DNA of 64,000 bases from Polaromonas sp. Its GTDB lineage: Bacteria; Pseudomonadota; Gammaproteobacteria; Burkholderiales; Burkholderiaceae_C. The notes beneath the pieces were generated by a model. The model made no database searches. It saw only the letters and a program-made list of their open reading frames with translations, and was not told the origin of the DNA. A program made the translations under genes and the position numbers. Location: assembly GCA_031422495.1 (NCBI GenBank), contig JANPLX010000100.1, forward strand, positions 197 through 64,196. The letters run 5' to 3'. Positions 2,726-36,947 of the stretch are shown here, piece after piece. Numbering within the stretch: position 1 is the first letter of the stretch; each line of letters starts with the position of its first letter.

Positions 2726-3991
2726 TCAAGTTTGAAATGCAAAATCCACCTCAGGCGCTAAGCCGCTGATGATGCGGGCAATCGATTTTCCGGAACCACA
2801 AGCGTGGGTCCATCCCAACGTGCCGTGGCCTGTGTTGAGGTAAAAATTGCTGAGTTTGGTTTTGCCGATCAAAGGTACATTGGAAGGCGTGGCTGGTCGT
2901 AAACCGGTCCAAAATTGGGCTTGCTCTGCATCGCCAGCGCCTGGAAAGAGCTGCTCTACACGTTTCACGATCGCTTCGCAGCGAACGCGGTTTAAATATC
3001 GGTCATAGCCATTGAGTTCCGCCGTTCCCGCGATGCGTATTGTGTCGCCCGCAGGCGTGGTATAGCGCGAAAACACCAATTTGTACTCATCGTCAGTCAA
3101 AGACACTTGATAGGCCTTGGCAGCATCGACGACTGGCATGGTGACTGAGTAGCCTTTGGCCGGGTAAATGGGTAGGTTGATGCCCAACGGTGCGGCATAA
3201 ATGGGGCTCATAGAGCCCATCGCCATCACATAGGCATCAGCGCGAACGCGTTGAAACCGACCTTCGCTGTCAGTCGCTTCGACATGGTCAATCGCGCCAC
3301 CTGCTTCACGTAGCGCGGTAACTGTGTGGCTCATCAAAAACTTGACGCCAGCGTTTTGGCACAACTTCACCAGTTCACGCGCAAATAAATTAGCATCGCC
3401 AGATTCGTCTTCCGCAGTATAGGTTGCACCGGCTAACTGGGGGCGAATGTGTTGCAGGGAAGGCTCAAGGCGAACTGCTTCGTCTGCAGAGATGACTTGC
3501 CGCTCACAACCCAAAGAACGCATGAGTTCAGCGGGTTTCAATGCACCGTCAAATTCTTTTTGCGTCGTATAAAAATGCAAAATACCCTGTGTCCGCTGGG
3601 CGTAGCTCAAGCCCGTGTCGCGTCGCAGCGCTTGCAACATGTCGCGGCTATACGTGCCTAATCGCACAATTTGTTCAATGTTATGACGGGTACGCGCAGG
3701 GGTGCATTCACGCAAAAACTGCAATCCCCACAGCCATTGGCGCATGTCTGCGCGAATTCTGAAGAGTAAAGGTGCGTCCTCTTTGCCCAACCACTGCAAC
3801 ACTTTGAGCGGTGCACTCGGATTCGCCCAAGGCTCAGCATGGCTCACTGATATTTGACCGCCATTGGCAAAGCTGGTTTCCGCAGCGGGTGAAGCTTGCC
3901 GGTCTATGACGGTGACCTCATGACCCAACTGAGAAAGATAATAGGCAGAGCTGACGCCAAGCAAACCGCTACCGAGTACTAAAACACGCAT
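2726..3991 (-). CDS. dadA: FAD-dependent D-amino-acid dehydrogenase family oxidoreductase (DadA-like), downstream of a glycine riboswitch
   Basis: 421 aa. The N-terminal MRVLVLGSGLLGVSSAYYLSQLGHEVTVIDR dinucleotide fold and C-terminal FWTGLRPATPSNVPLIG...NTGHGTLGW are collinear with E. coli DadA. Confidence 0.85.
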   Translation of the reverse strand: MRVLVLGSGLLGVSSAYYLSQLGHEVTVIDRQASPAAETSFANGGQISVSHAEPWANPSAPLKVLQWLGKEDAPLLFRIRADMRQWLWGLQFLRECTPARTRHNIEQIVRLGTYSRDMLQALRRDTGLSYAQRTQGILHFYTTQKEFDGALKPAELMRSLGCERQVISADEAVRLEPSLQHIRPQLAGATYTAEDESGDANLFARELVKLCQNAGVKFLMSHTVTALREAGGAIDHVEATDSEGRFQRVRADAYVMAMGSMSPIYAAPLGINLPIYPAKGYSVTMPVVDAAKAYQVSLTDDEYKLVFSRYTTPAGDTIRIAGTAELNGYDRYLNRVRCEAIVKRVEQLFPGAGDAEQAQFWTGLRPATPSNVPLIGKTKLSNFYLNTGHGTLGWTHACGSGKSIARIISGLAPEVDFAFQT

Positions 3992-4004: not shown

Positions 4005-4068
4005 ATGGATGCAGCCGGCGATTTTATTGTCTAAGTAGCTATAAAAATAATAGCAAAAAACTATAGGA
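4005..4068 (-). repeat. Composite repeat, copy A (GCCGGC core 4013-4029, AT palindrome GCTATAAAAATAATAGC 4038-4054), in the 5' UTR of the dadA-like gene
   Basis: agccggcgattttattgtctaagtagctataaaaataatagc aligns with copy G, tagccggcgtatttattgcctacagcgctattaaaaatatag. Confidence 0.8.
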
Positions 4069-4089: not shown

Positions 4090-4338
4090 GCTGTGCCGCT
4101 CCCCCTGTCCTTGGTACCTGAGAGATTCACAGAGAGCCAGTTGGCATTCTGTTTGCTCCTTCGGTGCAAGTCATGCGTTAACACTGATCGGTGATGACGC
4201 TACTTGGCTCTCCAGACGGCTTTTAAAAAGGTGCAGTACATCACCCAAAATTGACGTAGGTCAATTTTATGGATACCTGAGCGTTCATGGGAGTTTGCGC
4301 CTTCGGTGGCATAGTTAGACTATGCTCTCTCCTGCAAA
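4090..4338 (-). promoter_or_regulatory. Tandem glycine riboswitch (two aptamers) on the minus strand, upstream of the dadA-like gene
   Basis: Aptamer 1 (fwd 4271-4338), read on the reverse complement: GCAGGAGAGAGCAUAG-UCUAA-CUAUGC-CACCGAAGGCGCAAAC...CGCUCAGGUAUCC. Aptamer 2 (fwd 4096-4220): GUCUGGAGAGCC...GCACCGAAGGAGCAAAC...AAUCUCUCAGGUACCAAGGACAG. These are the glycine-riboswitch hallmarks: GGAGAG, CACCGAAGG(G/A)GCAA and CUCUCAGG..AAGGACAG. A U-rich tract (fwd 4066-4078) follows. Confidence 0.8.
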
Positions 4339-4384
4339 ATCAATTGTAGTATAAATTTAGACGTTGAAATAATAAACAAAAGGA

Positions 4385-6597: not shown

Positions 6598-6662
6598 AAA
6601 TTAGGTAGTTATGGTTCTAGCCGGTGTATTAATTGATTAAGTAGCTATCATAAATATAGCTT
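6597..6662 (-). repeat. Composite repeat, copy B, abutting two convergent stop codons
   Basis: ggttctagccggtgtattaattgattaagtagctatcataaatatagc. Both the core and the AT palindrome are present. Confidence 0.8.
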
Positions 6663-6670
6663 GATAAAAA

Positions 6671-7741: not shown

Positions 7742-8686
7742 TTAGGTTATCTTACCTAACAACAAGTATTCCATCAATGCTTTTTGTGCATGAAGACGGT
7801 TCTCAGCTTCCTCCCAAACCACGGATTGTGGACCGTCAATGACTTCAGCTTCCACTTCTTCGCCACGGTGCGCGGGCAGGCAGTGCATGAACAGGGCGTC
7901 AGGTTTAGCGGCGCGCATCATGTCAGTATCTACACACCAATCAGCAAACGCTTTTTTACGCGCTTCGTTTTCAGCCTCAAAGCCCATGCTGGTCCATACG
8001 TCAGTGGTGACCAAATCTGCCCCTTCACACGCTTGCATCGGGTCTTTGAAAACTTTATAGCTGTCTGTCGAGCGCAGTCCTGCAATGTCTTGGTCTACTC
8101 CGTAACCACTTGGGGTGCTGATGTGAACTTTGAAGCCTAAAATCTCGCTAGCTTGTAGCCATGTGTTGGCCATGTTGTTGCCGTCGCCCACCCAGGCTAC
8201 AGTTTTACCTAAAATTGAGCCACGGTGTTCAATGAAAGTAAAAATATCAGCCAAGATTTGGCAGGGATGAAATTCGTTGGTCAAGCCGTTGATCACGGGA
8301 ACGCGTGAATGCGCTGCAAAGCTATCAATTTTGGTTTGCTCAAAAGTGCGAATCATCACCAAATCAACCATGCGGCTGATCACTTTGGCGCTGTCCTCAA
8401 TCGGCTCGGCACGACCCAGTTGGCTGCCATCGGTTGTCAAATGCACTACTGAGCCGCCCAGTTGGTACATGCCTGCTTCAAAGCTCACACGGGTGCGGGT
8501 CGAGGCTTTTTCAAATATCATAGCCAGAGTACGATCAGCTAGGGGCTGGTGCTTTTCGTAAGCTTTGAATTTTTTCTTGATCAGCGCTGCACGCTCAAAA
8601 ATGTACGCGTACTCAGCCGCCGTCAAGTCGCTGAATTGCAGGTAATGTTTGATAGCTTTGGTGCTGATTGGCGTATTTGTACTCAT
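7742..8686 (-). CDS. argF: Ornithine carbamoyltransferase
   Basis: 314 aa with the motifs STRTRVSFE, HPCQ and HCLPAHRGEE. Confidence 0.95.
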   Translation of the reverse strand: MSTNTPISTKAIKHYLQFSDLTAAEYAYIFERAALIKKKFKAYEKHQPLADRTLAMIFEKASTRTRVSFEAGMYQLGGSVVHLTTDGSQLGRAEPIEDSAKVISRMVDLVMIRTFEQTKIDSFAAHSRVPVINGLTNEFHPCQILADIFTFIEHRGSILGKTVAWVGDGNNMANTWLQASEILGFKVHISTPSGYGVDQDIAGLRSTDSYKVFKDPMQACEGADLVTTDVWTSMGFEAENEARKKAFADWCVDTDMMRAAKPDALFMHCLPAHRGEEVEAEVIDGPQSVVWEEAENRLHAQKALMEYLLLGKIT

Positions 8687-9897
8687 GCTTTTTCAGTCAA
8701 CATTTGAATCACCAGTGGTATCAAGATGGAGACAATCTCATCAATCTCAGCCGCTGTGATGATGAGCGGCGGCACCATTCGAATGACGCTGTCTGCTGTC
8801 ACACTGATGAGCAAGCCTTTTTCAGCGCAACGTCCAGTCAACTCGCTGCAGGGTTTGTTAAGCTCCATGCCTATCATCAAACCTTGTCCCCGAATTTCTT
8901 TCAAACCTGCTTTGCCGACTTGGCTGTCATTCATGGCTTTGGTTAAAACGGCTTTGAAATAATCGCCCATCTTGGCTGCATGCGCTAGCAAGCCATCTTC
9001 TTCCATGATGCGAATGGTTTCAATGCCTGCCCGCATTGCCAGTGGGTTACCGCCAAATGTTGTGCCGTGGTTGCCGGGTTGGAAGATGTTGGCTGCTTTG
9101 GGGCCAGCAACGACTGCGCCAATCGGCACACCACTGCCCAAACCTTTAGCCAAAGGCATCACGTCCGGCACGATACCTGCCCACTGGTGAGCAAACCATT
9201 TGCCGGTGCGACCCATACCGCATTGCACTTCGTCAATCATCAAGAGCCAATCGTTGACATCGCACAATTTACGTACTTGCTGCAAATACTCAACCCGCAT
9301 CGGGTTGACACCACCTTCGCCTTGAATGGTTTCAAAAAACACCGCGGTGACATTTTTATTGCCAGCAGTTGCTTTTTTAAGCGCTTCAATGTCGTTTTGC
9401 GGCACGCGAATGAAGCCTTCAACCAGTGGGCCAAAGCCAGCTTGCACTTTCGGGTTGCCCGTCGCACTCAGGGTGGCGATACTGCGACCGTGAAAAGCTT
9501 TTTCATAAACGACGATTTCGGGGCGGTCAATGCCTTTGTCATGGCCATACTTGCGAGCCAGCTTTAGAGCAGCTTCGTTGGCTTCTAAACCTGTACAGCA
9601 GAAAAATACATTGGTCATACCAGACAGTTCAACCAATTTGGCGGCTAATTTCTCCTGTCCCGGCACATGGTAATAGTTGCAACTGTGGATGATTTTGCTC
9701 AGTTGGTCTTGCAAGGCCGGTACCAATTTGGGGTGGTTGTGGCCTAAGGTATTGACCGCAATGCCGCCCAAAGCATCAATATAGCTTTTGCCGTTGATAT
9801 CCCACACGCGGCAGCCTTGACCATGCGATAAGGCTATGGGCACGCGGCCATAGGTATTCATCACATGAGGGGAGGCGGCTTCGATGAATGCGGGCAT
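8683..9897 (-). CDS. argD: Acetylornithine (succinylornithine) aminotransferase, class III PLP enzyme
   Basis: 404 aa with LMIDEVQCGMGRTGKWFA and GTTFGGNPLA motifs. It has a 4-bp ATGA overlap with argF. Confidence 0.9.
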   Translation of the reverse strand: MPAFIEAASPHVMNTYGRVPIALSHGQGCRVWDINGKSYIDALGGIAVNTLGHNHPKLVPALQDQLSKIIHSCNYYHVPGQEKLAAKLVELSGMTNVFFCCTGLEANEAALKLARKYGHDKGIDRPEIVVYEKAFHGRSIATLSATGNPKVQAGFGPLVEGFIRVPQNDIEALKKATAGNKNVTAVFFETIQGEGGVNPMRVEYLQQVRKLCDVNDWLLMIDEVQCGMGRTGKWFAHQWAGIVPDVMPLAKGLGSGVPIGAVVAGPKAANIFQPGNHGTTFGGNPLAMRAGIETIRIMEEDGLLAHAAKMGDYFKAVLTKAMNDSQVGKAGLKEIRGQGLMIGMELNKPCSELTGRCAEKGLLISVTADSVIRMVPPLIITAAEIDEIVSILIPLVIQMLTEKA

Positions 9898-10617: not shown

Positions 10618-11367
10618 ATGAAAGTCTTGGTCGCAGTCAAACGTGTTGTTGATTACAACGTCAAAGTTCGTGTCAAATCGGACAACACCGGCGTCGATAT
10701 CGCCAACGTCAAAATGAGCATGAACCCGTTTGATGAAATCGCGGTTGAAGAAGCCGTTCGCTTGAAAGAAAAAGGCGTTGTGACTGAAATCATCGCCGTG
10801 TCTTGCGGTGTCGCGCAATGTTCCGAGACCTTGCGCACTGCCATGGCCATTGGCGCTGACCGCGCTATTTTGGTTGAAACATCTGAAGAATTGCAACCAC
10901 TCGCCGTTGCAAAATTACTCAAAGCCTTGGTCGACAAAGAGCAGCCAGGTTTGGTCATCTTAGGCAAACAAGCGATTGACGATGATTGCAACCAAACCGG
11001 CCAAATGTTGGCTGCCTTAGGTGACATGCCACAAGCCACGTTTGCATCGAAGGTTGAAATTGTTGATGGTAAAGCAGTTGTGTCACGTGAAGTCGACGGC
11101 GGTATGGAGACCCTGTCTATCAGCATGCCAGCAGTCATCACCACCGATTTGCGCTTGAACGAGCCACGCTACGTGACCTTGCCAAACATCATGAAGGCCA
11201 AGAAAAAGCAACTCGATATCTTCAAACCTGAAGACTTGGGCGTTGACGTCAGCCCTCGCTTGAAGACCCTCAAAGTGTCCGAGCCACCAAAACGCAGCGC
11301 GGGTATCAAAGTGCCCGATGTGGCCACACTCGTCGCTAAATTGAAAACTGAAGCCAAAGTACTCTAA
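10618..11367 (+). CDS. etfB: Electron transfer flavoprotein beta subunit
   Basis: 249 aa, [19 protein letters not shown]...; a canonical EtfB. Confidence 0.95.
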
Positions 11368-11413: not shown

Positions 11414-12346
11414 ATGTCATCATTAGTAATCGCCGAACACGACAACGCTAGCATCAAGCCCGCCACTCTTAACACCGTTACTGCTGCATTGCAGTGTGGT
11501 GGTGATGTGCACGTGCTGGTCGCTGGCTCTAACGCAGCCGCTGCCGCTGCAGCCGCCGCACAAATCGCTGGCGTCACCAAAGTATTGCACGCAGACGACG
11601 CTGACTTAGCACATGGCTTGGCAGAAAACGTCGCTGCCCAAGTGTTAGCGGTCGCTTCCAACTACTCTCACATCTTGTTTCCCGCAACGGCCAGCGGCAA
11701 AAACGTCGCGCCTCGCGTGGCTGCCAAATTGGACGTGGGTCAAATCTCTGACATCACCAAAGTTGACAGTCCTGACACATTTGAGCGCCCGATTTATGCA
11801 GGTAATGCGATTGCAACCGTGCAAAGCTTGGATGCCATTAAAGTATTAACCGTTAGAACTACTGGATTCGACCCAGCCGGCGTAAATAATGCCTCAGTAG
11901 CTATTGAAACTGTAGCAATTCAAGCTCCAAGTGCTCAATCTACATTCATGGGCAGCGAGATTGCGAAGAACGACAGACCTGAGCTAACAGCAGCCAAAAT
12001 CATCGTCAGCGGTGGCCGTGCTTTGGGCAGTGCAGAGAAATTCAACGAAGTGATGACCCCACTGGCAGACAAACTGGGTGCAGCCATGGGCGCATCACGA
12101 GCTGCCGTTGATGCCGGTTATGCACCCAACGATTGGCAAGTTGGCCAAACCGGCAAAATTGTTGCCCCACAGTTGTATGTGGCTTGCGGCATCAGCGGCG
12201 CGATTCAGCATTTGGCGGGCATGAAAGACTCCAAAGTCATCGTCGCCATCAACAAAGACGAAGAGGCGCCGATTTTCTCGGTGGCTGACTACGGTCTGGT
12301 GGCAGATTTGTTTACCGCCGTGCCTGAGTTGGTTGCGGCTCTGTAA
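11414..12346 (+). CDS. etfA: Electron transfer flavoprotein alpha subunit
   Basis: 310 aa with C-terminal PQLYVACGISGAIQHLAGMKDSKVIVAINKDEEAPIF. Confidence 0.95.
   Translation: MSSLVIAEHDNASIKPATLNTVTAALQCGGDVHVLVAGSNAAAAAAAAAQIAGVTKVLHADDADLAHGLAENVAAQVLAVASNYSHILFPATASGKNVAPRVAAKLDVGQISDITKVDSPDTFERPIYAGNAIATVQSLDAIKVLTVRTTGFDPAGVNNASVAIETVAIQAPSAQSTFMGSEIAKNDRPELTAAKIIVSGGRALGSAEKFNEVMTPLADKLGAAMGASRAAVDAGYAPNDWQVGQTGKIVAPQLYVACGISGAIQHLAGMKDSKVIVAINKDEEAPIFSVADYGLVADLFTAVPELVAAL
11872..11922 (-). repeat. Composite repeat copy embedded in frame in the etfA inter-domain linker
   Basis: cccagccggcgtaaataatgcctcagtagctattgaaactgtagcaatt versus copy G tctagccggcgtatttattgcctacagcgctattaaaaatatagtaatt. 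This is about 70% identity by eye, with the same spacing between core and palindrome. It encodes ...PAGVNNASVAIETVAI.... Confidence 0.65.
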
Positions 12347-12380: not shown

Positions 12381-14174
12381 ATGACGTACCGCGCCCCTGT
12401 GAAAGACATGCTGTTCAACATGCAGCATTTGGCAAATATTGAACAAGTGGCGCAGTTGCCAGGTTTTGAGGATGCCGGTTTTGACACCGCGCAAGCCGTG
12501 TTGGAAGAATGCGCCAAATTCAGCGAAGGCGTGCTCAGCCCGTTGAATTGGGAAGGTGATAAAAACCCTTCCAGCTGGAAAAATGGTGTCGTCACCTCCA
12601 CTCCGGGTTTCAAAGAGGCCTTCAAGCAATTTGCCGACGGTGGCTGGCAAGGGCTGCAGCATCCGCAAGCTTTTGGCGGTCAAGGTTTGCCGAAAACGAT
12701 TGGCTCTGCTTGCGGCGAAATGCTGAACAGCGCGAACATGAGTTTTGCCCTTTGCCCTTTACTCAGCGACGGCGCGATTGAAGCTTTACTGACTGCAGGT
12801 TCGGACGATTTAAAAGCGATTTATTTAGAAAACTTGGTCAGCGGCAAATGGACAGGCACCATGAACCTGACCGAGCCACAAGCGGGTAGCGATTTAGCCG
12901 CAGTGCGCACCCGTGCCGAACCGCAAGCCGACGGTAGCTACAAAGTATTTGGTACGAAAATCTACATCACCTGGGGTGAGCACGACATGGCCGAAAACAT
13001 CGTCCATTTGGTGCTGGCTCGTGTGGTCGGTGCGCCTGAAGGCGTCAAAGGCATCAGCTTATTTGTGGTGCCGAAATTTATGGTCAACAAAGATGGCTCA
13101 GTAGGCACACGTAATGACGTGCACTGCGTCAGCATCGAGCACAAAATGGGCATCAAAGCCAGCCCGACGGCGGTTTTGCAGTATGGCGATAACGGCGGAG
13201 CGATTGGCTATTTAGTTGGTCAAGAAAACCGTGGCTTGGAATATATGTTCATCATGATGAACGCCGCACGTTTCGGCGTCGGCGTCCAAGGCATCGCGAT
13301 TGCCGAGCGCGCTTACCAAAAAGCCGTGCAATTCGCCAAAGACCGCGTGCAAAGCCGCCCTGTTGATGGCTCTATTGCCGCCAGCGCCCCCATCATTCAC
13401 CACCCAGACGTCAAGCGCATGCTTATGACCATGCGTGCCTACACCGAAGGCTGCCGCGCCATGGCGATCAGCTCAGCCGCCGCCTACGATGCATCACACC
13501 ACCACCCAGATGCAGACGTGCGCAAACAAAACGCTGCGTTTTACGAATTCATGGTGCCGCTCATCAAAGGTTACAGTACCGAAATGAGTTTGGAAGTTGC
13601 CAGCCTGGGCGTGCAAGTGCACGGTGGCATGGGCTTTATCGAAGAAACCGGCGCAGCGCAGTATTACCGTGATGCGAAGATTTTGACGATTTACGAAGGC
13701 ACAACCGCCATTCAAGCGAACGACTTGGTAGGCCGCAAAACCGCCCGAGACGGCGGTCAAACTGCCAAAGGTATCGCTGCGCAAATTGAAGTGACAGAAG
13801 CAGAATTGGTTCTAAGCGGCAGTATAGAAGCAAAAGCGGTATTGAAACACCTCACTGCAGCGCGTTTGGCGTTCATCGATGTGGTGAACTTCGTCGCTGG
13901 AAATACCAAGGCTTCGCCCAATGCGGTGTTTTCAGGCAGCGTTCCTTACCTCATGCTCGCTGGTAACTTGATGGCTGGTTGGCAATTAGGTCGCAGTCTG
14001 CTGGTTGCAGAAGCTCAACTTGCTGCTGGCGGCGAAGACGCCGCTTTCATGAATGCCAAAATCATCACTGCTCAGTTTTACGCTGAGCACCTGTTGTGCA
14101 GAGTACCAAGTATGCGCGGAAGTATTGTGGATGGCGCAACGTCTGTGACAGCGATGGCTTTAGAGTCGTTCTAA
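12381..14174 (+). CDS. Acyl-CoA dehydrogenase, long (about 600 aa) form
   Basis: 597 aa. Acyl-CoA dehydrogenase (ACAD) N-terminal, middle and C-terminal motifs are present (TEPQAGSD, GGMGFIEETGAAQYYRDAKILTIYEGTT), plus a C-terminal extension. It lies directly downstream of etfBA. Confidence 0.9.
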   Translation: MTYRAPVKDMLFNMQHLANIEQVAQLPGFEDAGFDTAQAVLEECAKFSEGVLSPLNWEGDKNPSSWKNGVVTSTPGFKEAFKQFADGGWQGLQHPQAFGGQGLPKTIGSACGEMLNSANMSFALCPLLSDGAIEALLTAGSDDLKAIYLENLVSGKWTGTMNLTEPQAGSDLAAVRTRAEPQADGSYKVFGTKIYITWGEHDMAENIVHLVLARVVGAPEGVKGISLFVVPKFMVNKDGSVGTRNDVHCVSIEHKMGIKASPTAVLQYGDNGGAIGYLVGQENRGLEYMFIMMNAARFGVGVQGIAIAERAYQKAVQFAKDRVQSRPVDGSIAASAPIIHHPDVKRMLMTMRAYTEGCRAMAISSAAAYDASHHHPDADVRKQNAAFYEFMVPLIKGYSTEMSLEVASLGVQVHGGMGFIEETGAAQYYRDAKILTIYEGTTAIQANDLVGRKTARDGGQTAKGIAAQIEVTEAELVLSGSIEAKAVLKHLTAARLAFIDVVNFVAGNTKASPNAVFSGSVPYLMLAGNLMAGWQLGRSLLVAEAQLAAGGEDAAFMNAKIITAQFYAEHLLCRVPSMRGSIVDGATSVTAMALESF

Positions 14175-14190
14175 AATCATTCATTATTTA

Positions 14191-14258
14191 CCCTAAAACG
14201 CTATAAATATAATAGCTGTTTAAGCAATAAATACGCCGGCTAGAGGCGTACTTAAGTG
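14191..14258 (+). repeat. Composite repeat, copy C
   Basis: ccctaaaacGCTATAAATATAATAGCtgtttaaGCAATAAATACGCCGGCTAGAGGCGTActtaag. The core can fold as a TACGCC/GGCGTA hairpin. Confidence 0.85.
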
Positions 14259-14305
14259 TGAAAAGTGCGTTTCGTTGAAGTTGTTACTATTATTTGGAGA
14301 TATTC

Positions 14306-25074: not shown

Positions 25075-26571
25075 ATGAGCCAAGTTACCAACTCCGTTCG
25101 CTTCGTCCTCGACGGCAAGATCGTCGAGGCGCAGGGCGCGCGGCGCACCACAACTGTCTTGGACTATTTGCGCGAGCAAATGCATCGCACCGGTACCAAA
25201 GAGGGCTGCGCTGAGGGGGATTGTGGGGCTTGCGTGGTTTTAGTGGGCGAGTTGAACGCGGCAGGAACAGGCGTTGACTATGTGCCGACGAACAGCTGTA
25301 TGCAATTGCTGCCCTCGTTAGACGGCAAATCCATCAAAACTGTGGAAAGTTTGAAACGTGCTGATGGTACGTTGCATCCGATCCAAGAGTCTATGGCGAC
25401 TTGCTTTGGCTCGCAATGCGGTTTTTGCACACCGGGTATTGTGATGAGTTTGGCGGGTTTGGTGCAAACCAACACCGCACCGAACCGTACAGAAATCAAC
25501 GATGCGCTGAGTGGCAATTTGTGCCGCTGCACAGGCTACAAACCCATCATCGACGCCACCTTACAAGCCTGCAAAGCAGCGCCCGAGCAGCTGAAAATCG
25601 AAGACGAAGCCGACATCGCCCTGCTCAAAAACATCCGCCGCGCCGCTGTGCCGATTTACAACTTGGATGGCGATATCGTCGTGCAGCCCGTCGTGCGCAC
25701 CCGCAAGGGCAACGAATTTGTCGCTCCTGCCACAGTGGCAGAGGTGGCTGATTACCTCGTCAAACACCCCAACGCCACGCTACTCGCAGGCAGCACAGAG
25801 ATCGGTCTGCAGGTCAACAAGCAGTTCACCCGCCCCGACAACATCGTTTACTTGGGTAATGTCACCGAACTGAAAACGATTACCTCTAAAAACGGCATGT
25901 GGCACATTGGCGCAGCCGTGTCGCTCACGCAAGTTCAAAACCTTATTGGTGATACCTATCCTGACTTTGCCGAGGTGCTACGTCGATTTGGCTCACCGCC
26001 TATCCGCTCGACCGCGACCTTAGCCGGCAATATCGCCAACGGCTCGCCGATTGGTGATTCCATGCCGTGTTTGCTCGCTTTGGGGGCAACGATGACGCTA
26101 CGCCGTGGTGACAAAACGCGCCAAGTTGCTTTGGAAAACTTCTATACCGGCATGAAGAAAAACGTGCTGCAAGCGGGCGAATTCATTGAAGCTGTACTCT
26201 TGCCGCAACCCAAAAAGGGTAGCGCCTTCCGCGCCCACAAAATCAGCAAACGCTTCGACCAGGACATCTCTGCCATCGTCTGCGCCATGAGCTACGTGCT
26301 GGTGGGTGGCAAGTTCAAAAATGTCAAAATAGCCTACAACGGTTTAGCATCGTCACCCTGTCGTGCTCCTAAATTAGAAGCAATATTAGAAGAAAATACG
26401 CCGGCTAATGTGCAAAGTGCAGCGCTTGATGCGGCAATCACTGCCAGTTTTCCTGCGCGTGACGGCTTGCGTGCCACTTGGGCGTATCGCTCCTTGGTTG
26501 CGCGCAATTTGGTGATGCAATTTGTGGAAGAGTCAATCGAATCCTCAGACCTCATGAAGGAGACTGTGTAA
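25075..26571 (+). CDS. xdhA: Xanthine dehydrogenase small subunit (2Fe-2S + FAD domains)
   Basis: 498 aa with GCAEGDCGACVV and CRCTGYKPI iron-sulfur motifs, then the FAD-binding domain. Confidence 0.9.
   Translation: MSQVTNSVRFVLDGKIVEAQGARRTTTVLDYLREQMHRTGTKEGCAEGDCGACVVLVGELNAAGTGVDYVPTNSCMQLLPSLDGKSIKTVESLKRADGTLHPIQESMATCFGSQCGFCTPGIVMSLAGLVQTNTAPNRTEINDALSGNLCRCTGYKPIIDATLQACKAAPEQLKIEDEADIALLKNIRRAAVPIYNLDGDIVVQPVVRTRKGNEFVAPATVAEVADYLVKHPNATLLAGSTEIGLQVNKQFTRPDNIVYLGNVTELKTITSKNGMWHIGAAVSLTQVQNLIGDTYPDFAEVLRRFGSPPIRSTATLAGNIANGSPIGDSMPCLLALGATMTLRRGDKTRQVALENFYTGMKKNVLQAGEFIEAVLLPQPKKGSAFRAHKISKRFDQDISAIVCAMSYVLVGGKFKNVKIAYNGLASSPCRAPKLEAILEENTPANVQSAALDAAITASFPARDGLRATWAYRSLVARNLVMQFVEESIESSDLMKETV
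26369..26410 (+). repeat. Partial composite-repeat copy in frame near the xdhA 3' end
   Basis: cctaaattagaaGCAATAttagaagaAAATACGCCGGCTAatg contains a 14-mer identical to the repeat core. It encodes ...LEAILEENTPAN.... Confidence 0.55.
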
Positions 26572-28985
26572 TGAATGCACCTACCACGCTCAAAGAACTG
26601 ATGCCAAACTTGGCCGACTCAGCGGCTCAGGGCACAGACGTAATCCACGAATCCGCCCGACTACACGTCACCGGCGAAGCGGTCTACACCGACGACATTC
26701 CCGAACTGCGTGGAACGCTCTATGCAGCGCTGATTTTGTCCCCCGTCGCCCACGGCGAGTTGATTGGTGAGGGCATTGACCGCGCCGCCATCCTAGCTGA
26801 GCATGGTGTGGTGGCGGTTTACACAGCGAGCGACATTCCGGGTGAAAACAACTGCGGCCCAATCATCCATGACGACCCGTTTCTGGCTTCTGGGAAGGTC
26901 GAATTCATCGGCCAAGCCATTGCAGTGGTCGTGGCACGGGACATGCTTTACGCCCGCGAAGTCGCTAAAAAAGCGGTGGTCAAAGTTAAAGAATTACCAG
27001 CGATTTTGACGATTGACGAAGCCATGACAGCCAAAAGCTTCATCATGCCACCCAAAGGAATCACACGTGGCACGCCGGCCGAGGCCATCAAAACCGCGTC
27101 GCACACCCTCAAAGGCGAAACCACCTGCGGCCAGCAGGAGCAGTTTTACCTAGAAGGCCAAATCACCTACGCTGTACCGCGTGAAGATGGTCAATTGACG
27201 CTGTATGTGTCGACCCAACACCCCGACGGCAACCAGCGCGAAGCAGCAGCAGCGCTGAATTTGTCCACGAATGACGTCGAAGTGATCTGCCGCCGCATGG
27301 GCGGTGCTTTTGGCGGCAAAGAGGGCAATGCCAGCATCTTCTCGCAAAGTGCAGCATTGGCAGCCTTCAAGCTGCAAAAGCCGGTAAAACTGCGTGTGAA
27401 CCGTGATGACGACATGATGATCACCGGTAAACGCCACGATTTCCGCGCCCAATACGAGGTGGGTTTCGATGACGCCGGCCATATTTTGGGTGTTGACGTG
27501 GTTTTAGCCTCGCGCTGCGGCTACAGCACCGACTTTTCTGGCCCAGTGAACGACCGCGCCGTGTTGCACATCGACAACTGCTATTACCTGCCGAATCTTT
27601 CCATCATCAGCCACCGATGCAAAACCAATATGCAAAGCGCCACAGCGTTTCGCGGCTTTGGCGGCCCGCAGGGCATGTTTGCGATTGAGACGGTCATCGA
27701 GCAGATTGCCCAAAAATTAGGAAAAGACCCGTTGGACGTGCGTAAGGCCAATTTGTACAAAGACGCTGCGGTTTCTGGCAATATTGACACGATCACCACC
27801 CAATACGGCCAGCAGATTGAAGACTGGATTGGCGATAAGGTGATGACTCAATTAGAAGAGGAATCTAACTATACCCAGCGCAGAATAAGCCTAGCTAGCT
27901 ACAACAAAACGAGCAAGTACAAGAAGAAGGGCATCGCCCTCGTACCGTTGAAATTCGGTATCAGCTTCACCGCCACCATGTTGAATCAGGGCGGCGCGCT
28001 GCTGAATATTTACATGGACGGCTCGGTCAGCGTCAACCATGGCGGCACGGAGATGGGGCAGGGCTTGAACACCAAAATGGCGCAGGTCGCGGCGGATGGT
28101 TTGGGCATTCCGGTCAGCTTGGTTCGGGTGACGGGTACGGACACGCAGAAAGTGCCGAACGCCTCGGCCACAGCGGCTTCTAGCGGTGCAGACATCAACG
28201 GTGCGGCGGTGAATAACGCTTGCGACCAGATGCGGGTTCGCTTGGCTGCAGTGGCAGGGCGGATGCTTAATTGCGCACCAGATGCTATTAAATTCATAGC
28301 TGGACAGGCAATAAATACGCCGGCTATGTCTAAAAATGACACTAAAAATAGTGTTTCATGGCAAGAAGTCGTCAAACAAGCTTGGCTAGACCGCGTCGGC
28401 CTGTCTGTGACGGGGTTTTACATGACACCAGACATCAAATACGACTTCGCCACCCTGAACGGCAAGGCGTTTTACTACTTCTGCTACGGCGCAGCGGTGA
28501 CCGAGGTCGAAATCGACACCCGCACTGGCGAGTGGTGGCTGCAAAAGGTCGATATCGTGCACGACGCCGGCAAATCCATCAACCCTGCTATTGATTTAGG
28601 TCAAATCGAAGGCGCTTACGTGCAAGGCATGGGCTGGTTGACGATGGAGGAGTGCATTTGGGACATGAAAGCCAAGACGATCGATGGCGTGGACGGACTG
28701 GGTCGCGGAAAACTCCTCACCCACGGCCCCAGCACCTACAAAATCCCGGTGGCGAGTGACATTCCGGAGCATTTCAAAGTCAGCTTTTTCGACGGCGAAA
28801 ACATCAAACCCACGCCGTTTAAGAGCAAAGCCGTCGGCGAGCCGCCGCTGATGCTGGCTTTAAGTGCGTATTTTGCGATCCGTGACGCCGTCAGCGCCTC
28901 TGCAGACCACAAAGTCCCCGTTTTCATGGACGCACCTGCTACACCAGAGCGGATTTTGATGGCTTGCGAAGCCTTGAAACGCTAA
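26571..28985 (+). CDS. xdhB: Xanthine dehydrogenase molybdopterin-binding large subunit
   Basis: Start MNAPTTLKE overlaps the xdhA stop (TAATG). Motifs GGAFGGKE, FRGFGGPQG and GEPPL are present. The ORF-track start 26478 is an upstream extension. Confidence 0.9.
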   Translation: MNAPTTLKELMPNLADSAAQGTDVIHESARLHVTGEAVYTDDIPELRGTLYAALILSPVAHGELIGEGIDRAAILAEHGVVAVYTASDIPGENNCGPIIHDDPFLASGKVEFIGQAIAVVVARDMLYAREVAKKAVVKVKELPAILTIDEAMTAKSFIMPPKGITRGTPAEAIKTASHTLKGETTCGQQEQFYLEGQITYAVPREDGQLTLYVSTQHPDGNQREAAAALNLSTNDVEVICRRMGGAFGGKEGNASIFSQSAALAAFKLQKPVKLRVNRDDDMMITGKRHDFRAQYEVGFDDAGHILGVDVVLASRCGYSTDFSGPVNDRAVLHIDNCYYLPNLSIISHRCKTNMQSATAFRGFGGPQGMFAIETVIEQIAQKLGKDPLDVRKANLYKDAAVSGNIDTITTQYGQQIEDWIGDKVMTQLEEESNYTQRRISLASYNKTSKYKKKGIALVPLKFGISFTATMLNQGGALLNIYMDGSVSVNHGGTEMGQGLNTKMAQVAADGLGIPVSLVRVTGTDTQKVPNASATAASSGADINGAAVNNACDQMRVRLAAVAGRMLNCAPDAIKFIAGQAINTPAMSKNDTKNSVSWQEVVKQAWLDRVGLSVTGFYMTPDIKYDFATLNGKAFYYFCYGAAVTEVEIDTRTGEWWLQKVDIVHDAGKSINPAIDLGQIEGAYVQGMGWLTMEECIWDMKAKTIDGVDGLGRGKLLTHGPSTYKIPVASDIPEHFKVSFFDGENIKPTPFKSKAVGEPPLMLALSAYFAIRDAVSASADHKVPVFMDAPATPERILMACEALKR
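28284..28352 (+). repeat. Full-length composite repeat in frame inside xdhB
   Basis: GCTATTAAATTCATAGCtggacaGGCAATAAATACGCCGGCTAtgtctaaaaatgacactaaaaatag. It matches intergenic copy L (53325) at 36 of 43 nt. It encodes DAIKFIAGQAINTPAMSKNDTKNS. Confidence 0.85.
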
Positions 28986-29064: not shown

Positions 29065-29964
29065 GTGGATTTCACCGCCGAATTTCAACGACTTTTGGCC
29101 AGTGAAGACGCAGTAGTTGTCTCCATAGCGTCCACCCAAGGCTCAGTCCCGCGCGAGACGGGGACGTGGATGGCGGTGTTTGCCGGCCACATCGTCGGCA
29201 CGATAGGCGGCGGTCACGTCGAATTTGAAGCCATTACCGAAGCTAGAGCGCTTTTACGCGGCAATTATTCTTCAGAGCCGTCGTTCCCGCGAAGGCGGGA
29301 ATCCACTGCGGATGACAGCACAAGTTCGTATGCAAAACGATATGTCTTAGGCCCAAGCCTAGGCCAATGCTGCGGTGGTGTGATGACTTTATGCTATCAA
29401 AAATATAGCTATTTAGGCATTAAATACGACGGCTATAGCCAAAATATGCCTAAAAATGAGGCATTTAAGTCGATTTCATACCCAAAACTCCAAAACGTCG
29501 CCCTATTCGGCGGCGGTCACGTCGGCAAAGCCATCGTCAATATCCTCAGCACCTTGCCCATGCAGGTGATGTGGATCGACAGCCGCGATGAAATCTTCCC
29601 AGACGAGCTTCCCAGTAATGTCATCTGCGAACATTCCGACCCTGTGCAAGCCGCAGTCAACGACTTAGCTGCCGGCTGCCACATCCTCATCATGAGCTTC
29701 AGCCACGCCGAAGACCTAGACATCGTCGCCGCATGCCTATTGCGCCAGCGGGAAAGGGCGGATTTGTCTTTCATAGGCTTGATTGGCAGCAAAACCAAGT
29801 GGGCAACTTTTCGGCATCGACTTGAGGACAGAGGATTCACCGCGTCGGAATTGGCGCACGTCACCTGTCCGATAGGGGTAGACGGTGTGAAAGGGAAGGA
29901 GCCTGAGGTGATTGCGGTTGGGGTGGCGGCACAATTACTAAAATTGCGAAGTTTAACCTCTTAA
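29065..29964 (+). CDS. xdhC: Xanthine dehydrogenase accessory (Moco insertion) protein XdhC
   Basis: 299 aa (GTG start). Motifs GSVPRE..GT, GGGHVE, LGQCCGG and the C-terminal Rossmann LFGGGHVGKA are present. Confidence 0.85.
   Translation: MDFTAEFQRLLASEDAVVVSIASTQGSVPRETGTWMAVFAGHIVGTIGGGHVEFEAITEARALLRGNYSSEPSFPRRRESTADDSTSSYAKRYVLGPSLGQCCGGVMTLCYQKYSYLGIKYDGYSQNMPKNEAFKSISYPKLQNVALFGGGHVGKAIVNILSTLPMQVMWIDSRDEIFPDELPSNVICEHSDPVQAAVNDLAAGCHILIMSFSHAEDLDIVAACLLRQRERADLSFIGLIGSKTKWATFRHRLEDRGFTASELAHVTCPIGVDGVKGKEPEVIAVGVAAQLLKLRSLTS
29281..29305. repeat. Short GC hairpin repeat in frame inside xdhC
   Basis: TCGTTCCCGCGAAGGCGGGAATCCA (TTCCCGC/GCGGGAA stem) encodes SFPRRRES inside a variable XdhC loop. 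Confidence 0.6.
29393..29470 (+). repeat. Full-length composite repeat in frame in the xdhC inter-domain linker
   Basis: GCTATCAAAAATATAGCtatttaGGCATTAAATACGACGGCTATAGCCaaaatatgCCTAAAAAtgaggcatttaag. It is about 80% identical by eye to copy K2 (50353). The consensus GGC TAG AGC reads GGC TAT AGC here. It encodes CYQKYSYLGIKYDGYSQNMPKNEAFKS. Confidence 0.85.
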
Positions 29965-31318: not shown

Positions 31319-31329
31319 AATTTGAGGTT

Positions 31330-31388
31330 GCTATATTTTTAATAGCAATACAGGCAATAAATATGCTGGCTAACGGCGTATTACAGTG
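31330..31388 (+). repeat. Composite repeat, copy H
   Basis: GCTATATTTTTAATAGCaatacaGGCAATAAATATGCTGGCTAACGGCGTATTacag. Confidence 0.8.
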
Positions 31389-31411: not shown

Positions 31412-32725
31412 TTATAGCGATTTAAACACGTCAGCTGCGACTGCAATCGTTTCATCAATGTCAGCGTCTGTGTGCGCGCTGCTCACGAAGCCAGCTTCGT
31501 ACAAGGCGGGCGCGATGTAAATGCCACGATCCAGCAGGCCGTGGAATAGCTTGTTGAAGCGCGGGCTGTCGGTGGTCATCACTTTGGCGTAGTTTTGCGG
31601 CAGCTCGTTCATCAAGAAAAAGCCAAACATGCCACCCTGGCTGTCACCGCAGAAGGGCACACCAGCGGCTTGGGCGGCTTGGGTCAAACCAGACACCAGA
31701 TTTTGCGTTTTGCGCCCGAGTTCTTCAAAGAAACCGGGTTTTTGGATCTCTTTCAAGGTTGCCAAGCCACAAGCGGTGGCTACTGGGTTGCCCGACAGCG
31801 TGCCCGCTTGGTAAACCCCGCCCAGCGGTGCCAAGTGCTCCATGATGGCGCGGGAAGCGCCAAAAGCCGCCAGTGGCATGCCACCGCCGATGACTTTGCC
31901 CAGCACAGTGATATCAGGTTTGATGCCCAAAACCGCCTGCGCACTGCCCAAAGCGACGCGGCAGCCAGACATGACTTCGTCAAATATCAGCAGCGCGCTA
32001 TATTCGGAACATAGCTCACGGCAACGGGTGGCGAAAGCGTGGCTGGCGCGGACGAAGTTCATGTTGCCAGCTATCGGCTCGATCATGACGCAGGCCAGTT
32101 CTTTGCCATGCTGTGCAAAGGCTTCTTCCAGCTGGGGAATGTTGTTGAACTCCAGCACCAAGGTGTCTTTCACCACGTCTGCAGGCACGCCTGAGCTGGT
32201 GGGGTGGCCAAAAGTGGCCAAACCAGAGCCGGCTTTGACCAACAGCGCATCAGCATGGCCGTGGTAGCAGCCCTCAAATTTGATGAATTTAACGCGTCCC
32301 GTGGCACCCCTAGCCAAGCGAATAGCGCTCATAGAGGCTTCGGTGCCTGAGCTAACTAAGCGCACCATCTCCATCGAAGGCACCAACTTAATGATTTCTT
32401 CAGCTAATTCGACCTCACGCTCTGTCGGTGCACCGAATGAAAATCCATCTAAAGCGGCTTTTTGTACGGCTTCTAGCACGGCTGGGTGGCCGTGGCCCAA
32501 AATCATCGGACCCCAAGAGCCGATGTAATCAATATAGCGCTGACCGTTGGCATCCCAAAAGTAGGCGCCTTGGGCGCGTTTGACGAAGCGAGGTGTACCG
32601 CCTACGGCTTTGAATGCGCGAACCGGAGAGTTAACGCCGCCCGGAATGCTGCGTTTAGCGCGCTCAAACAATTCGACGTTGCTGTCTTGATTTGCGGCAT
32701 TTTGTAAGCTTTTAGTTGTATTCAT
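31412..32725 (-). CDS. hemL: Glutamate-1-semialdehyde 2,1-aminomutase
   Basis: 437 aa with [19 protein letters not shown] and KVIGGGMPL motifs. Confidence 0.95.
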
Positions 32726-32874
32726 GGTTCAAGAATTTTAAAACGAAGCGCAAAACTGCGCTTTTATAGTTGATTACCCCTAGTGCAAGAAGTAACAAGA
32801 CGGCTATTTGTCGGATTATCCCGACACCCAAATGTTAGAAAGTGTAATTTCAGTCAATTGCTGTCCTACAATGG

Positions 32875-33084
32875 ATGAATTCTAATCTTTGTACGAAGGC
32901 GACGCTGGCGGTGACTGATTCTAAAACTTGGTTGTGTTTAATCTGTGGTTGGTTGTATGAAGAGAAGCTGGGCTCGCCTGACGACGGCATACCGCCAGGT
33001 ACACCTTGGGCACAAGTTCCCATGAATTGGACTTGTCCTGAGTGTGGCGCACGTAAAGAAGATTTTGAGATGGTTGAGATTTAA
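32875..33084 (+). CDS. Rubredoxin
   Basis: WLCLICGWLYEE...WTCPECGARKEDFEMVEI carries the two CxxC pairs. The N-terminal extension and start are uncertain. Confidence 0.8.
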   Translation: MNSNLCTKATLAVTDSKTWLCLICGWLYEEKLGSPDDGIPPGTPWAQVPMNWTCPECGARKEDFEMVEI

Positions 33085-33152
33085 GTAAAGATATCAGCAG
33101 AGATATCAGTAAATATATAAGTAGAGATCTGATTGATTTTTGGAGAAATACT

Positions 33153-33548
33153 ATGGCTACATCGAATACAGCATTGAAGATTTTGGTTATTGACGACAGC
33201 AACACTGTGCGTCAAAGCGCGGAAATGTTTTTGCGCCAAGGCGGCCATGAGGTGTTTTTGGCGGAAGATGGTTTTGATGCACTGTCAAAAGTGAGTGATC
33301 ACCAGCCAGACATGATTTTTTGCGATATTTTGATGCCGCGATTGGACGGTTATCAAACCTGCGCCATCATCAAGCGAAACCCGCATTACGAAAACATTCC
33401 TATCGTCATGTTGTCGTCCAAAGACGGCGTTTTTGACAAAGCGCGTGGCCGCATGGTCGGTGCACAGCAATATTTAACCAAACCTTTCATCAAAGACGCT
33501 TTGTTGCAATCTGTGCAGCATTTTGCTGGTCAGAAAGCTGTTCAGTAA
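33153..33548 (+). CDS. pilG: Twitching-motility response regulator PilG (CheY-like)
   Basis: 131-aa receiver domain (VIDDS...DILMPRLDG...K). It is the first gene of the pilGHIJ-chpA order. Confidence 0.85.
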   Translation: MATSNTALKILVIDDSNTVRQSAEMFLRQGGHEVFLAEDGFDALSKVSDHQPDMIFCDILMPRLDGYQTCAIIKRNPHYENIPIVMLSSKDGVFDKARGRMVGAQQYLTKPFIKDALLQSVQHFAGQKAVQ

Positions 33549-33591
33549 ATAGTGCATTAAACAGCGTTGAATAGCGCGTAAGAAAACAGTT

Positions 33592-33628
33592 GAAAAAATC
33601 GAAAAATCGAAAAATCGAAAAATTGAGA
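33592..33628 (+). repeat. Tandem octamer (GAAAAATC) x4 in the pilG-pilH spacer
   Basis: gaaaaaatc gaaaaatc gaaaaatc gaaaaatt, ending 8 nt before the pilH ATG. Confidence 0.85.
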
Positions 33629-33635
33629 ATTAAAA

Positions 33636-34001
33636 ATGACCATTCATAAAGTACTTGTTGTAGATGACTCCAAAACGGAGTTGATGTTTATCTCTGATCT
33701 GTTGCAAAAAAACGGCTTTGAAGTCGCCACTGCTGACGGCGGTGAACAAGCCATGCAATGCTTGGCCAAAGAAACGCCAGATTTGATATTGATGGACGTG
33801 GTGATGCCAGGTAAAAACGGTTTCCAATTGGCCAGAACAATCAATCGCGATCCTTTGTATGCGAATGTACCGATCATTTTTTGCAGCAGTAAAGACCAAG
33901 AAACTGACCGTTTATGGGGCATGCGCCAAGGCGCGAAAGATTACATCACCAAGCCTTTCAATTCAGACGAATTGATTGCCAAAATACGAGCGCAAGGCTG
34001 A
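33636..34001 (+). CDS. pilH: Twitching-motility response regulator PilH (CheY-like)
   Basis: 121-aa receiver domain (VVDDS...DVVMPGKNG...K). Confidence 0.85.
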   Translation: MTIHKVLVVDDSKTELMFISDLLQKNGFEVATADGGEQAMQCLAKETPDLILMDVVMPGKNGFQLARTINRDPLYANVPIIFCSSKDQETDRLWGMRQGAKDYITKPFNSDELIAKIRAQG

Positions 34002-34067
34002 ATTAATACCTTGAAAGGTGTGTCGCTGACATCAGTATAAAGCGCCTTCAAGTTAGAACTACAAAGT

Positions 34068-34604
34068 ATGGACAAGCGACAAAAACTACGTGATATGCAA
34101 ACCCGTTTGGCTGAAAAGCTGCAAGCGGTACGTTCGGGTGAGGTGACGTCTTCTGCTGCCTGGTTGGCTGTGGATTCTGGCGGCGCTAAATACCTGTTTC
34201 CATTGGGGCAATCCGGTGAAATTTTTGCTTGGGCACCGATTCAAAAAGTAGCCCACACGCAAGACTGGTATTTAGGTGTTGCCAATATTCGTGGCTCTTT
34301 GTTCGGTGTGGCTGATTTCACGGGGTTTGTGCAGCGGACTAAAGCAACGCTGAACAATGAGTTGTCGCGCTCAGAGGCACGCTTTGTGACCCTCAATGCC
34401 GCACTGGATGTTAATTGTGCTTTGTATGTGGACCGCTTGGAAGGTTTGCGTAGTACGGAGTCTTTTGTCGAATCGCACGAGCCCACAACAGGTTCCCCAG
34501 AATTTTTTGGACACACTTATGTAGACGTGAATGGCTTGCCTTGGCAAGAAATCAATTTGCAAGTGTTGTCTCAACAAGATAGTTTTTTAAATATTATTGC
34601 GTAA
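34068..34604 (+). CDS. pilI: CheW-like coupling protein PilI
   Basis: 178 aa with a CheW-like pattern, positioned between pilH and pilJ. Confidence 0.75.
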   Translation: MDKRQKLRDMQTRLAEKLQAVRSGEVTSSAAWLAVDSGGAKYLFPLGQSGEIFAWAPIQKVAHTQDWYLGVANIRGSLFGVADFTGFVQRTKATLNNELSRSEARFVTLNAALDVNCALYVDRLEGLRSTESFVESHEPTTGSPEFFGHTYVDVNGLPWQEINLQVLSQQDSFLNIIA

Positions 34605-34625
34605 AGATTTATTAAAGGTCGCCTC

Positions 34626-36902: not shown

Positions 36903-36947
36903 GATTATACTTTTGTAAATTTTTAACCTTCCAATTACAAATCATTT

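Follow-up and report, generated by a model that had tools for sequence, protein, structure and literature searches.

Codons 155–169 of etfA, the gene for the alpha subunit of electron transfer flavoprotein (ETF), are a genuine, derived member of a dispersed family of short repeats. The gene lies in a stretch of 64,000 nucleotides from contig JANPLX010000100.1, which was analysed over its full length and is referred to as the window; repeat finding combined with a core search yielded 12 further copies of the element in it. The copy in etfA is length-neutral, i.e. an equal length of ancestral coding sequence has been replaced. We propose that this happened by a one-step templated replacement of a stretch that already looked like the repeat, followed by maintenance through a force that conserves the family, a reading whose chances we rate as even.

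11414..12346, plus strand: etfA, the host gene (ETF alpha subunit, 310 residues); open reading frame (ORF) whose homologues carry PF01012 and PF00766
11870..11919, plus strand: in-frame repeat copy in sense ('C') orientation, encoding D153–I169 'DPAGVNNASVAIETVAI'; 38.4 bits with a position weight matrix (PWM)
11876..11884, plus strand: family core GCCGGCGTA, read as Ala-Gly-Val in etfA; found by core search
11900..11916, plus strand: family hairpin GCTAT-TGAAACT-GTAGC (GCTAT-N7-GTAGC)
11878..11920, plus strand: replaced block, codons 155–169, 43 nt at ancestral length; delimited by dense diagnostic bases in codon alignments

A repeat copy within etfA

The 12 further copies align to a gapless 50-nt consensus, GCTCTAGCCGGCGTATTTATTGCCTAAATAGCTATTAAATTTATAGCAAA. 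At 11870–11919, etfA reads GACCCAGCCGGCGTAAATAATGCCTCAGTAGCTATTGAAACTGTAGCAAT, which is identical to this consensus at 37 of 50 positions (74%) and to single copies at 65–74%; the match is gapless, and core and palindrome are exactly as far apart as in the family. With a PWM built from the 12 other copies, i.e. excluding the one in etfA, the latter scores 38.4 bits, compared with 44–70 bits for accepted family members, 23 and 18 bits for two partial look-alikes and about 6.5 bits for the best unrelated site among 128,000 window positions.

Could this match be a coincidence, arising from the composition of an AT-rich, Ala/Val-rich linker, or the import of an unrelated divergent etfA linker? Ancestral linkers do share 22–25 of 50 bases with the consensus, and the lineage has drifted to lower G+C. 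Permutation, however, effectively refutes coincidence: when the 90-nt etfA region is shuffled, best scores amount to -32 +/- 6.7 and do not exceed 4.8, so that none of 5000 reaches 38.4 bits (z = 10.6), and synonymous recodings of the linker peptide with the codon usage of the window give 0.8 +/- 8 with a maximum of 29.8, with none of 20,000 reaching that value. Derived bases go predominantly towards the consensus (11 of 14, see below), the linker type is absent from etfA outside the clade, and 1.9 Mb of other Burkholderiales loci contain no site above 36 bits, those above 18 bits being members of a variant form of the family. A chance origin or an unrelated import is therefore scarcely credible. 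The highest score attainable by synonymous recoding is 41.4 bits; with 38.4 bits the codons of etfA are near-optimal for the repeat, and the match thus resides in the DNA and not in the peptide.

The etfA copy corresponds to the right two thirds of the repeat element only. The left arm (AAATAYGSC, which pairs with GGCGTATTT in the family) is absent from it, and the codons upstream are the ancestral ones for VRTTGFDP, with no complementarity. Its hairpin comprises four pairs and a U.G wobble in the sense RNA and folds weakly (z = -1.0); codon 166 in the loop is the most variable one among relatives, and the hairpin loop varies throughout the family as well. A scan for promoters and terminators at the etfA copy found none.

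Replacement at constant length

EtfA has 310 residues in the window, in Polaromonas, Variovorax and Paraburkholderia and in most Burkholderiales, and this length is the same with either of two classes of linker. Among the 120 closest proteins, the class R linker 'DPAGVNNASVAIETVAIQ' ('GVNNASVAIE') is confined to those with at least 92% identity, and the class A linker 'DPAAATGGSAAVEVVAVQ' ('AATGGSAAVE') to those with at most 93%. Class R comprises ten sequences of the clade, nine of them distinct (L083 duplicates L082). All 80 genome loci and all 120 metagenome loci belong to class A, and in the comparison of scores about 195 sequences of etfA, from Burkholderiales and metagenomes, have this form; the metagenome loci, retrieved via a degenerate FMGSEIAK pattern and at most 88% identical, serve as background only. 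The Gly-Gly of class A is present in 80 of 80 etfA genes from other Burkholderiales and Pseudomonas, and in the ETF structures of Paracoccus (EGGTAP) and human (SGGSAS). Since all of these loci have class A and its Gly-Gly extends to Paracoccus and human, class A is ancestral and class R derived.

Codon alignments of the nine class R sequences with four class A relatives have equal numbers of codons. The class R codons are GCC GGC GTA AAT AAT GCC TCA GTA GCT ATT GAA ACT GTA GCA ATT, and those of class A GCT GCT GCA ACG GGT GGC TCT GCT GCT GTT GAA TCG GTC GCC GTA. Nine residues of EtfA are changed in class R, Gly-Gly among them, and the conserved residues E165 and S161 are retained. The linker also aligns without gaps with the ETF alpha chains of Paracoccus (1efp_A, one residue shorter further along) and human (1efv_A).

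It is against this background that a transposition-type insertion has to be weighed, in the style of transposable elements of the miniature inverted-repeat type (MITEs), repetitive extragenic palindromes (REPs) or Rickettsia palindromic elements (RPEs), after which the loss of about 15 ancestral codons would have restored the length. The same family does have in-frame copies that increase length, by 14 residues in an M20 peptidase gene of the relative L212 and by a net 8 residues in xdhB, and in-frame insertion of palindromic repeats is documented for RPEs (PMC10969869). In etfA, however, the length is exactly the ancestral one, also in comparison with the Paracoccus and human structures, and no longer linker exists among 120 proteins or about 205 DNA sequences. 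No target duplication, direct repeat or terminal inverted repeats were seen flanking the etfA copy, and the flanks are ancestral (GAC CCA and CAA). In addition, the left arm is missing, the copy sits in register with prior similarity while E165 and S161 persist, and a single replacement is more parsimonious than two events that cancel each other out exactly. We consider such a two-step history unlikely. The initial annotation had described a linker stretch about 70% identical to one repeat copy (copy G), with the same internal spacing and not obviously longer than in other EtfA proteins, and had found pure insertion a poor fit. These points are borne out, and the permutation test that it had suggested is decisive.

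A single block on a look-alike site

The difference between the two classes is sharply confined. Bases were taken as diagnostic if at least eight of the nine class R sequences share them and class A lacks them; within the 930 nt they are restricted to gene positions 432–513 (11845–11926) and are dense at 465–507. At the homologous site in about 205 etfA sequences, PWM scores run from -86 to -3.6 in class A and from 13.7 to 44 in class R, and none of these sequences is intermediate. The derived bases number 14, and 11 of them agree with the consensus of the repeat, where one third would be expected by chance (P ~7e-4).

The ancestral site was itself a look-alike. PWM scores at this site average -46, with values of -4 to -16 for the class A sequences closest to class R, compared with a mean of -78 and a 99.9th percentile of -30 for random 50-mers of etfA; in the class A sequence L089, 25 of 50 bases already equal the consensus, in register, and ancestral linkers in general reach 22–25. 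Such in-register similarity makes the site a plausible anchor for a templated event. In this frame the consensus carries a TAA stop codon, where etfA has TCA.

A look-alike ancestor would also suit a stepwise convergence, in which drive or selection at the level of the motif, generalizing the idea behind uptake signal sequences (USS) and DNA uptake sequences (DUS), writes the motif base by base into tolerant coding stretches. Candidate machineries are DNA uptake, a DNA-binding protein or a nuclease, and the process would be length-neutral by construction. It would account for two length-neutral genic copies (etfA and a plsC-like gene), for the lower scores of these copies (38 and 46 bits versus 55–70 for intergenic ones), as expected under protein constraint, and for the fine interleaving of repeat-like and ancestral bases in etfA. 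It would also suit a motif held at orthologous sites without homogenization within genomes, xdhB copies that track lineage variants like DUS dialects, and an R allele incongruent with the flanking phylogeny. Four of the 13 copies in the window are genic, and N. meningitidis has 34.5% of its uptake sequences in ORFs (PMC2817400). What speaks against it is the lack of any intermediate, with scores leaping from -4 or less to about +40, and the need for about 14 coordinated substitutions, including the loss of a Gly-Gly conserved to human. Moreover, constraint extends to about 34 positions over 45 nt, together with a hairpin, the motif's density of about one per 4.9 kb is below that of USS and DUS, the insertion of 14 residues in L212 represents arrival as a block, and no uptake specificity is known for Comamonadaceae, nor did a literature search bring one up. 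On this evidence, base-by-base writing appears rather improbable.

The initial annotation had envisaged just such a process, i.e. gradual conversion of a weakly constrained segment by a USS-like drive. Its gradualness is contradicted by two separate groups of scores with no intermediates and by one dense block in the codon alignments, and the weak constraint by a replaced Gly-Gly that is present in 80 of 80 other etfA genes, in Paracoccus and in human. A force at the DNA level, by contrast, is supported by static synonymous sites and by a motif conservation of about 0.83, whereas the length of the motif does not fit a USS-like drive and its density fits one weakly. For the suggested link to type IV pilus genes there is no evidence.

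Synonymous constraint and the proposed origin

The block is unusually static within class R. Among the nine distinct sequences, which diverge by 2–18% overall, six of the nine block codons with a conserved amino acid are fully invariant, as against 18.8% of codons elsewhere in etfB, etfA and acd (Fisher P = 0.0024; the same with A/T-ending codons only), and the block has the lowest synonymous variability of 1053 sliding windows. All three of its valines are encoded by GTA, the rarest Val codon. A force at the DNA level seems to act on the etfA copy.

The signature of a templated tract is present in etfA: a sharp 43-nt cluster of substitutions, no change in length and 11 of 14 bases changed towards the family consensus. 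We therefore propose the following sequence of events. In a single origin and in one step, about 43 nt of repeat-like linker would have been overwritten in register and in frame, at unchanged length, by non-reciprocal templated replacement with a family copy as the putative donor, either through short-patch gene conversion or through a switch of template during replication. The surviving allele would be one without the consensus stop codon (TCA instead of TAA). Homologous recombination may then have reshuffled the new allele among sister lineages. Finally, repeat-matching bases, silent ones included, would have been held by a force that keeps copies near one consensus, as the static codons in part indicate; this force might consist in the binding of a factor or in a transmission bias.

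Several observations weigh against this proposal. No donor copy can be named, and no single copy accounts for all of the bases; the most similar one examined by eye, L210:66, is about 83% identical by hand count. Repeat-matching and ancestral bases are interleaved at the scale of single nucleotides, a pattern not expected from a contiguous paste, except where the donor deviated at the variable positions of the family or some sites reverted later under protein selection. With a stop codon in this frame of the consensus, either the donor or the event must have been atypical. The flanking homology extends over only a few bases, and conversion of the RecA type normally needs far longer homology than that. 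As to maintenance, the synonymous test is small (nine codons in nine related sequences), and L085 (13.7 bits) and L212 (29.9 bits) are losing the match through non-synonymous changes; the constraint is thus real but neither absolute nor universal. As to history, class R is not monophyletic on flanking genes, and gene trees disagree: in one data set the class A sequences L081 and L087 group with L085 and L086 of class R at 99% bootstrap. No recent recombination tract shows around the block, where sliding-window distances are flat at 0.15–0.2. A single origin therefore requires later recombination, and we read class R and class A as an old dimorphism that has been reshuffled by recombination.

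A bolder version would be that an active, sequence-specific system recognizes the repeat as its motif, acting through biased uptake or recombination or through targeted copy-in. If so, a 45-nt hairpin motif would be written into essential genes and kept there at unchanged length, co-evolving with its reader across genera of the Comamonadaceae, and this would represent an uptake-sequence-like or homing-like drive outside the Neisseriaceae and Pasteurellaceae that dictates amino-acid sequence. We regard this as a long shot.

Under the templated replacement proposed here, the sequence of part of a housekeeping enzyme would be set by a non-coding repeat rather than by protein function. As length-neutral overprinting escapes both insertion-based repeat annotation and comparison of protein lengths, it could hide behind abrupt local protein divergence, and it could also yield false signals of positive selection. 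The repeat family offers a tractable case for studying what keeps dispersed bacterial repeats uniform, be it binding, drive or conversion, with the class R and class A dimorphism of etfA as a natural pair of alleles for experiments.

Further in-frame copies

Three other genes of the window carry the repeat in frame.

28281..28330, minus strand: copy in frame in xdhB, residues 602–618 'DAIKFIAGQAINTPAMS'; PWM 62.6 bits
29390..29439, minus strand: copy in frame in the inter-domain linker of xdhC, 'CYQKYSYLGIKYDGYS'; PWM 63.4 bits
48574..48623, plus strand: copy in frame in a plsC-like acyltransferase gene, 'AWAGALLAKLAIKLVVK'; PWM 46 bits

In xdhB (ORF 26478–28985, plus strand) the copy lies within the MoCoBD_2 domain and adds a net 8 residues relative to XdhB of R. 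capsulatus (1jro_B, whose alignment runs through) and to copy-free homologues (EVSFANGQA-HGG-GKSV). At the same spot, XdhB proteins of other genera have peptides that match the repeat variant of their own lineage (P0131 with FVAGCARSTGATS versus L003 with FIAACALSTGAS), and a Cys/Tyr/His position parallels TGC/TAC/CAC in the repeat variants. These protein sequences suggest that genic copies evolve together with the repeat family.

The copy in xdhC (ORF 29065–29964, plus strand) falls between the domains XdhC_CoxI and XdhC_C at residues 12–66 and 146–291. A peptide of its type ('YEKYSCSGNKYAGYSQK') is present in every homologue among the matches listed of the best 120 (71–93% identity), and a search of protein representatives with the 35-residue repeat-encoded peptide returned one irrelevant tandem-repeat ORF only. 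In the plsC-like gene (ATG at 48451, end at 49185) the copy is read in the same frame as in etfA and aligns without gaps with PlsC of T. maritima (5kym_A), which makes it the second length-neutral genic copy. Genic copies deviate from the consensus exactly where a stop codon would fall.

A further case lies outside the window. In L212, a copy at 8867–8916 inserts 14 residues, 'SRYSNDSELGNNNAGYKS', into a loop of a fusion of OHCU decarboxylase and peptidase M20 (gene 7838–9649, minus strand). It is lineage-specific, being absent from the window and from six other relatives, and with these 14 residues found in L212 alone, the family can arrive as a block and was mobile fairly recently.

The xdhC gene also contains a different in-frame repeat, a GC-rich hairpin TTCCCGCGAAGGCGGGAA that follows CGTC and encodes 'SFPRRREST' at residues 73–81 (29281–29307). 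XdhC homologues differ in the number of copies of this type or of related units ('SFPQSTSSFPRRREST', 'SFPQPHLSFPQPHPSFPQPHPSFPRRREST'), and the hairpin resembles the CGTC-tagged REPs of PMC3733652.

Architecture and conservation of the repeat family

The complete element spans about 65 nt and consists of a left arm AAATAYGSC, a loop TCTAGCC, a right arm GGCGTATTT, the segment ATTGCCTAA, a variable spacer and the hairpin GCTAT-N7-ATAGC; the consensus pattern of the family is CTAGCCGGCGTATTTATTGCCTAA-N3-GCTAT-N7-ATAGCAA. Information content is at least 1 bit at 34 of the 50 consensus positions. The left arm is semi-conserved, and its pairing with the conserved block exceeds that of shuffled arms (P = 7e-7); pairing specific to each copy was not significant when own arms were compared with those of other copies (P = 0.26).

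The other copies in the window, most of them intergenic, are as follows.

4008..4057, plus strand: copy separating a tandem glycine riboswitch from the DAO-family gene start; PWM 57 bits; orthologues in 7 relatives
6614..6663, plus strand: copy between convergent genes; PWM 54.7 bits; orthologues in 8 relatives
14197..14246, minus strand: copy nearest to etfA, between the acyl-CoA dehydrogenase gene and an NMO-family gene; PWM 69.4 bits
29970..30019, plus strand: copy between xdhC and a methyltransferase gene; PWM 64.8 bits
31327..31376, minus strand: copy whose end lies 8 nt upstream of a proQ-like gene start; PWM 59.5 bits
49221..49270, plus strand: copy between convergent genes; PWM 64.2 bits
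50258..50399, minus strand: two tandem copies (50258–50307 and 50350–50399); PWM 43.9 and 69.7 bits
53322..53371, minus strand: copy at the 3' end of an ABC permease gene; PWM 65.4 bits

Overall, this amounts to 13 copies in 64 kb, or one per 4.9 kb, with 4 of the 13 being genic. Copies are found in 5' leaders, downstream of stop codons and where genes converge, and in co-directional contexts there are about four per orientation relative to transcription (hand tally from gene tables). The copy at 14197–14246 forms two hairpins (-21.1 kcal/mol, z = -2.9) and has orthologues in 11 relatives, some of which carry the ancestral linker in etfA.

For three intergenic sites, as many as 11 relatives have a copy in the same place. 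Since orthologous intergenic copies exist in genomes of either etfA class, the family predates the event in etfA. At orthologous intergenic sites the 34 motif positions show 0.81–0.86 identity (about 0.83), paralogues 0.82–0.83, variable positions 0.37–0.51 and flanks about 0.36. The motif is therefore held by some force that acts on its sequence, and loops and flanks, in contrast, have decayed to about 0.4. Homogenization of intergenic copies within genomes was not detected (0.83 versus 0.82 identity).

Other Comamonadaceae (L003, L012, L159 and L175) have a variant, ...CTAGCCCCCGT...GCG.AAGCAGCTAT-N7-.TAGCAAT. The existence of such forms across the family Comamonadaceae argues for an old element with lineage-specific versions. 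Variant sites are L003:826, 2748 and 12890, L012:2566, 12834 and 18812, L159:317 and L175:6991, and the genomes include Rhodoferax sp. ELA098 and Ca. Aalborgicola; the core of the variant is GCCCCCGT versus GCCGGCGT, and the hairpin GCTAT-N7-.TAGC is unchanged.

With Rfam, only the glycine riboswitch reaches the gathering score in the window, and for the region 14150–14300 around the copy nearest to etfA the best matches at a permissive E-value stay at or below 13.5 bits (E > 1). No description of the family was found by plasmid BLAST or in the literature, and it is apparently undescribed. Two functional readings were rejected. A small ORF (consensus L-A-G-V-F-I-A-stop) is not supported by the copy at 14197, which on the minus strand has no in-frame start (translated by eye), and promoter or sigma-54 look-alikes, read by eye, conflict with copies at convergent gene ends and in both orientations.

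Some intergenic copies have conspicuous surroundings. The one at 4008–4057 occupies the position expected for an expression platform, i.e. between the aptamers of a tandem glycine riboswitch (4095–4344, minus strand; Rfam 53 and 40 bits) and the ribosome-binding site of the DAO-family oxidase gene downstream (2726–3991, minus strand), an arrangement kept in 7 relatives. At the proQ-like gene, both in the window (31327–31376) and at L088:16152, the copy ends 7–8 nt before the start, with no obvious Shine-Dalgarno sequence; a TATAAT box about 55 nt upstream would place the entire element in the 5' leader. The tandem copies, 92 nt apart, lie between two minus-strand genes, and an ATG right after the first opens a short frame through the second (MAKSSFRVFDPLNYTLAGVFVGFSAMVFV*), which is probably not a gene.

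The host gene and its setting

The identity of EtfA is clear from its similarity to solved ETF alpha chains (1efp_A, E = 1e-105; 1efv_A, E = 1e-100), and the gene stands between etfB (10618–11367) and an acyl-CoA dehydrogenase gene (12381–14174). Its nearest named relatives among the matches listed are from metagenome-assembled genomes of Rhodoferax and Polaromonas (87–89% identity). The G+C content of the window is about 50%, metagenome assemblies supply the closest homologues, and the host is probably a lineage of the Comamonadaceae living in fresh water. An AlphaFold model of EtfA based on 36 close homologues was poor (mean predicted local distance difference test score 55.7) and was not used.

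Residues 41–49 of EtfA (11534–11560) form a run of nine alanines in the N-terminal domain. EtfA relatives of 313–317 residues have extra residues upstream of the linker, possibly in this alanine run. G+C content varies along the window, from 44–46% in the pilus-chemosensory gene cluster (32001–44000) to 58–59% in the last 8 kb (56001–64000), and both of these regions are free of repeat copies.

Comparison with known systems

Short-patch ectopic gene conversion and template switching share with the etfA case a sharp cluster of substitutions towards a sequence of the genome, constant length and anchoring in local similarity. In most known cases, however, the partners are paralogous genes or quasi-palindromes close by, and their homology is much longer or better. 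For etfA, a dispersed non-coding repeat would have served as donor for a housekeeping gene present in one copy.

REPs, their REPIN doublets with the associated RAYT transposases, and MITEs resemble the family in being short, hairpin-forming and mostly extragenic, with hundreds of copies in either orientation and long vertical inheritance. REPs, however, are extragenic by definition, and the present repeat has no consistent GTAG/CGTC tag (GTAG precedes the hairpin in 4 of the 13 window copies). Unlike REPINs, its copies are not inverted doublets, and unlike MITEs, no terminal inverted repeats or target duplications were seen. A RAYT or transposase gene did not come up either, with no search aimed at one. 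The repeat does not look like a typical REP or MITE.

USS and DUS have cores of 9–12 bp and an uptake bias that was shown by experiment, and from published totals and genome sizes we estimate their density at about one per 1–3 kb. To our knowledge, no uptake signal comes near the size of the present motif, with its hairpin and its roughly 34 constrained positions over 45 nt. The totals, for three reference genomes, are 1471, 765 and 1892 uptake sequences, of which 34.5–65% are in ORFs (PMC2817400). Likenesses to our repeat lie in occurrence on both strands, over-representation, conservation at orthologous sites, a genic share without length change, dialects and effects on peptides (PMC2817400). 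The differences are, besides the length of the motif, a density in the window of about one per 5 kb, a strong intergenic enrichment and a state of etfA that changed in one discrete block.

RPEs (Ogata et al. 2000, 2002, via PMC10969869) are palindromic repeats that are found both in intergenic regions and in frame in housekeeping genes, which they leave undamaged. Corresponding in-frame hosts here are etfA, xdhB, xdhC, the plsC-like gene and the M20 peptidase gene of L212. RPEs are about 100–150 bp long and add a peptide segment (PMC10969869), whereas our element has about 50–65 nt and no sequence similarity to them, and its betaproteobacterial host is free-living, presumably in fresh water. 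With respect to length, the copies in L212 M20 (+14 residues) and xdhB (+8 residues) behave as RPEs do, but those in etfA and the plsC-like gene add none. In its outcome, the etfA case is closest to RPEs, minus the gain in length that defines them.

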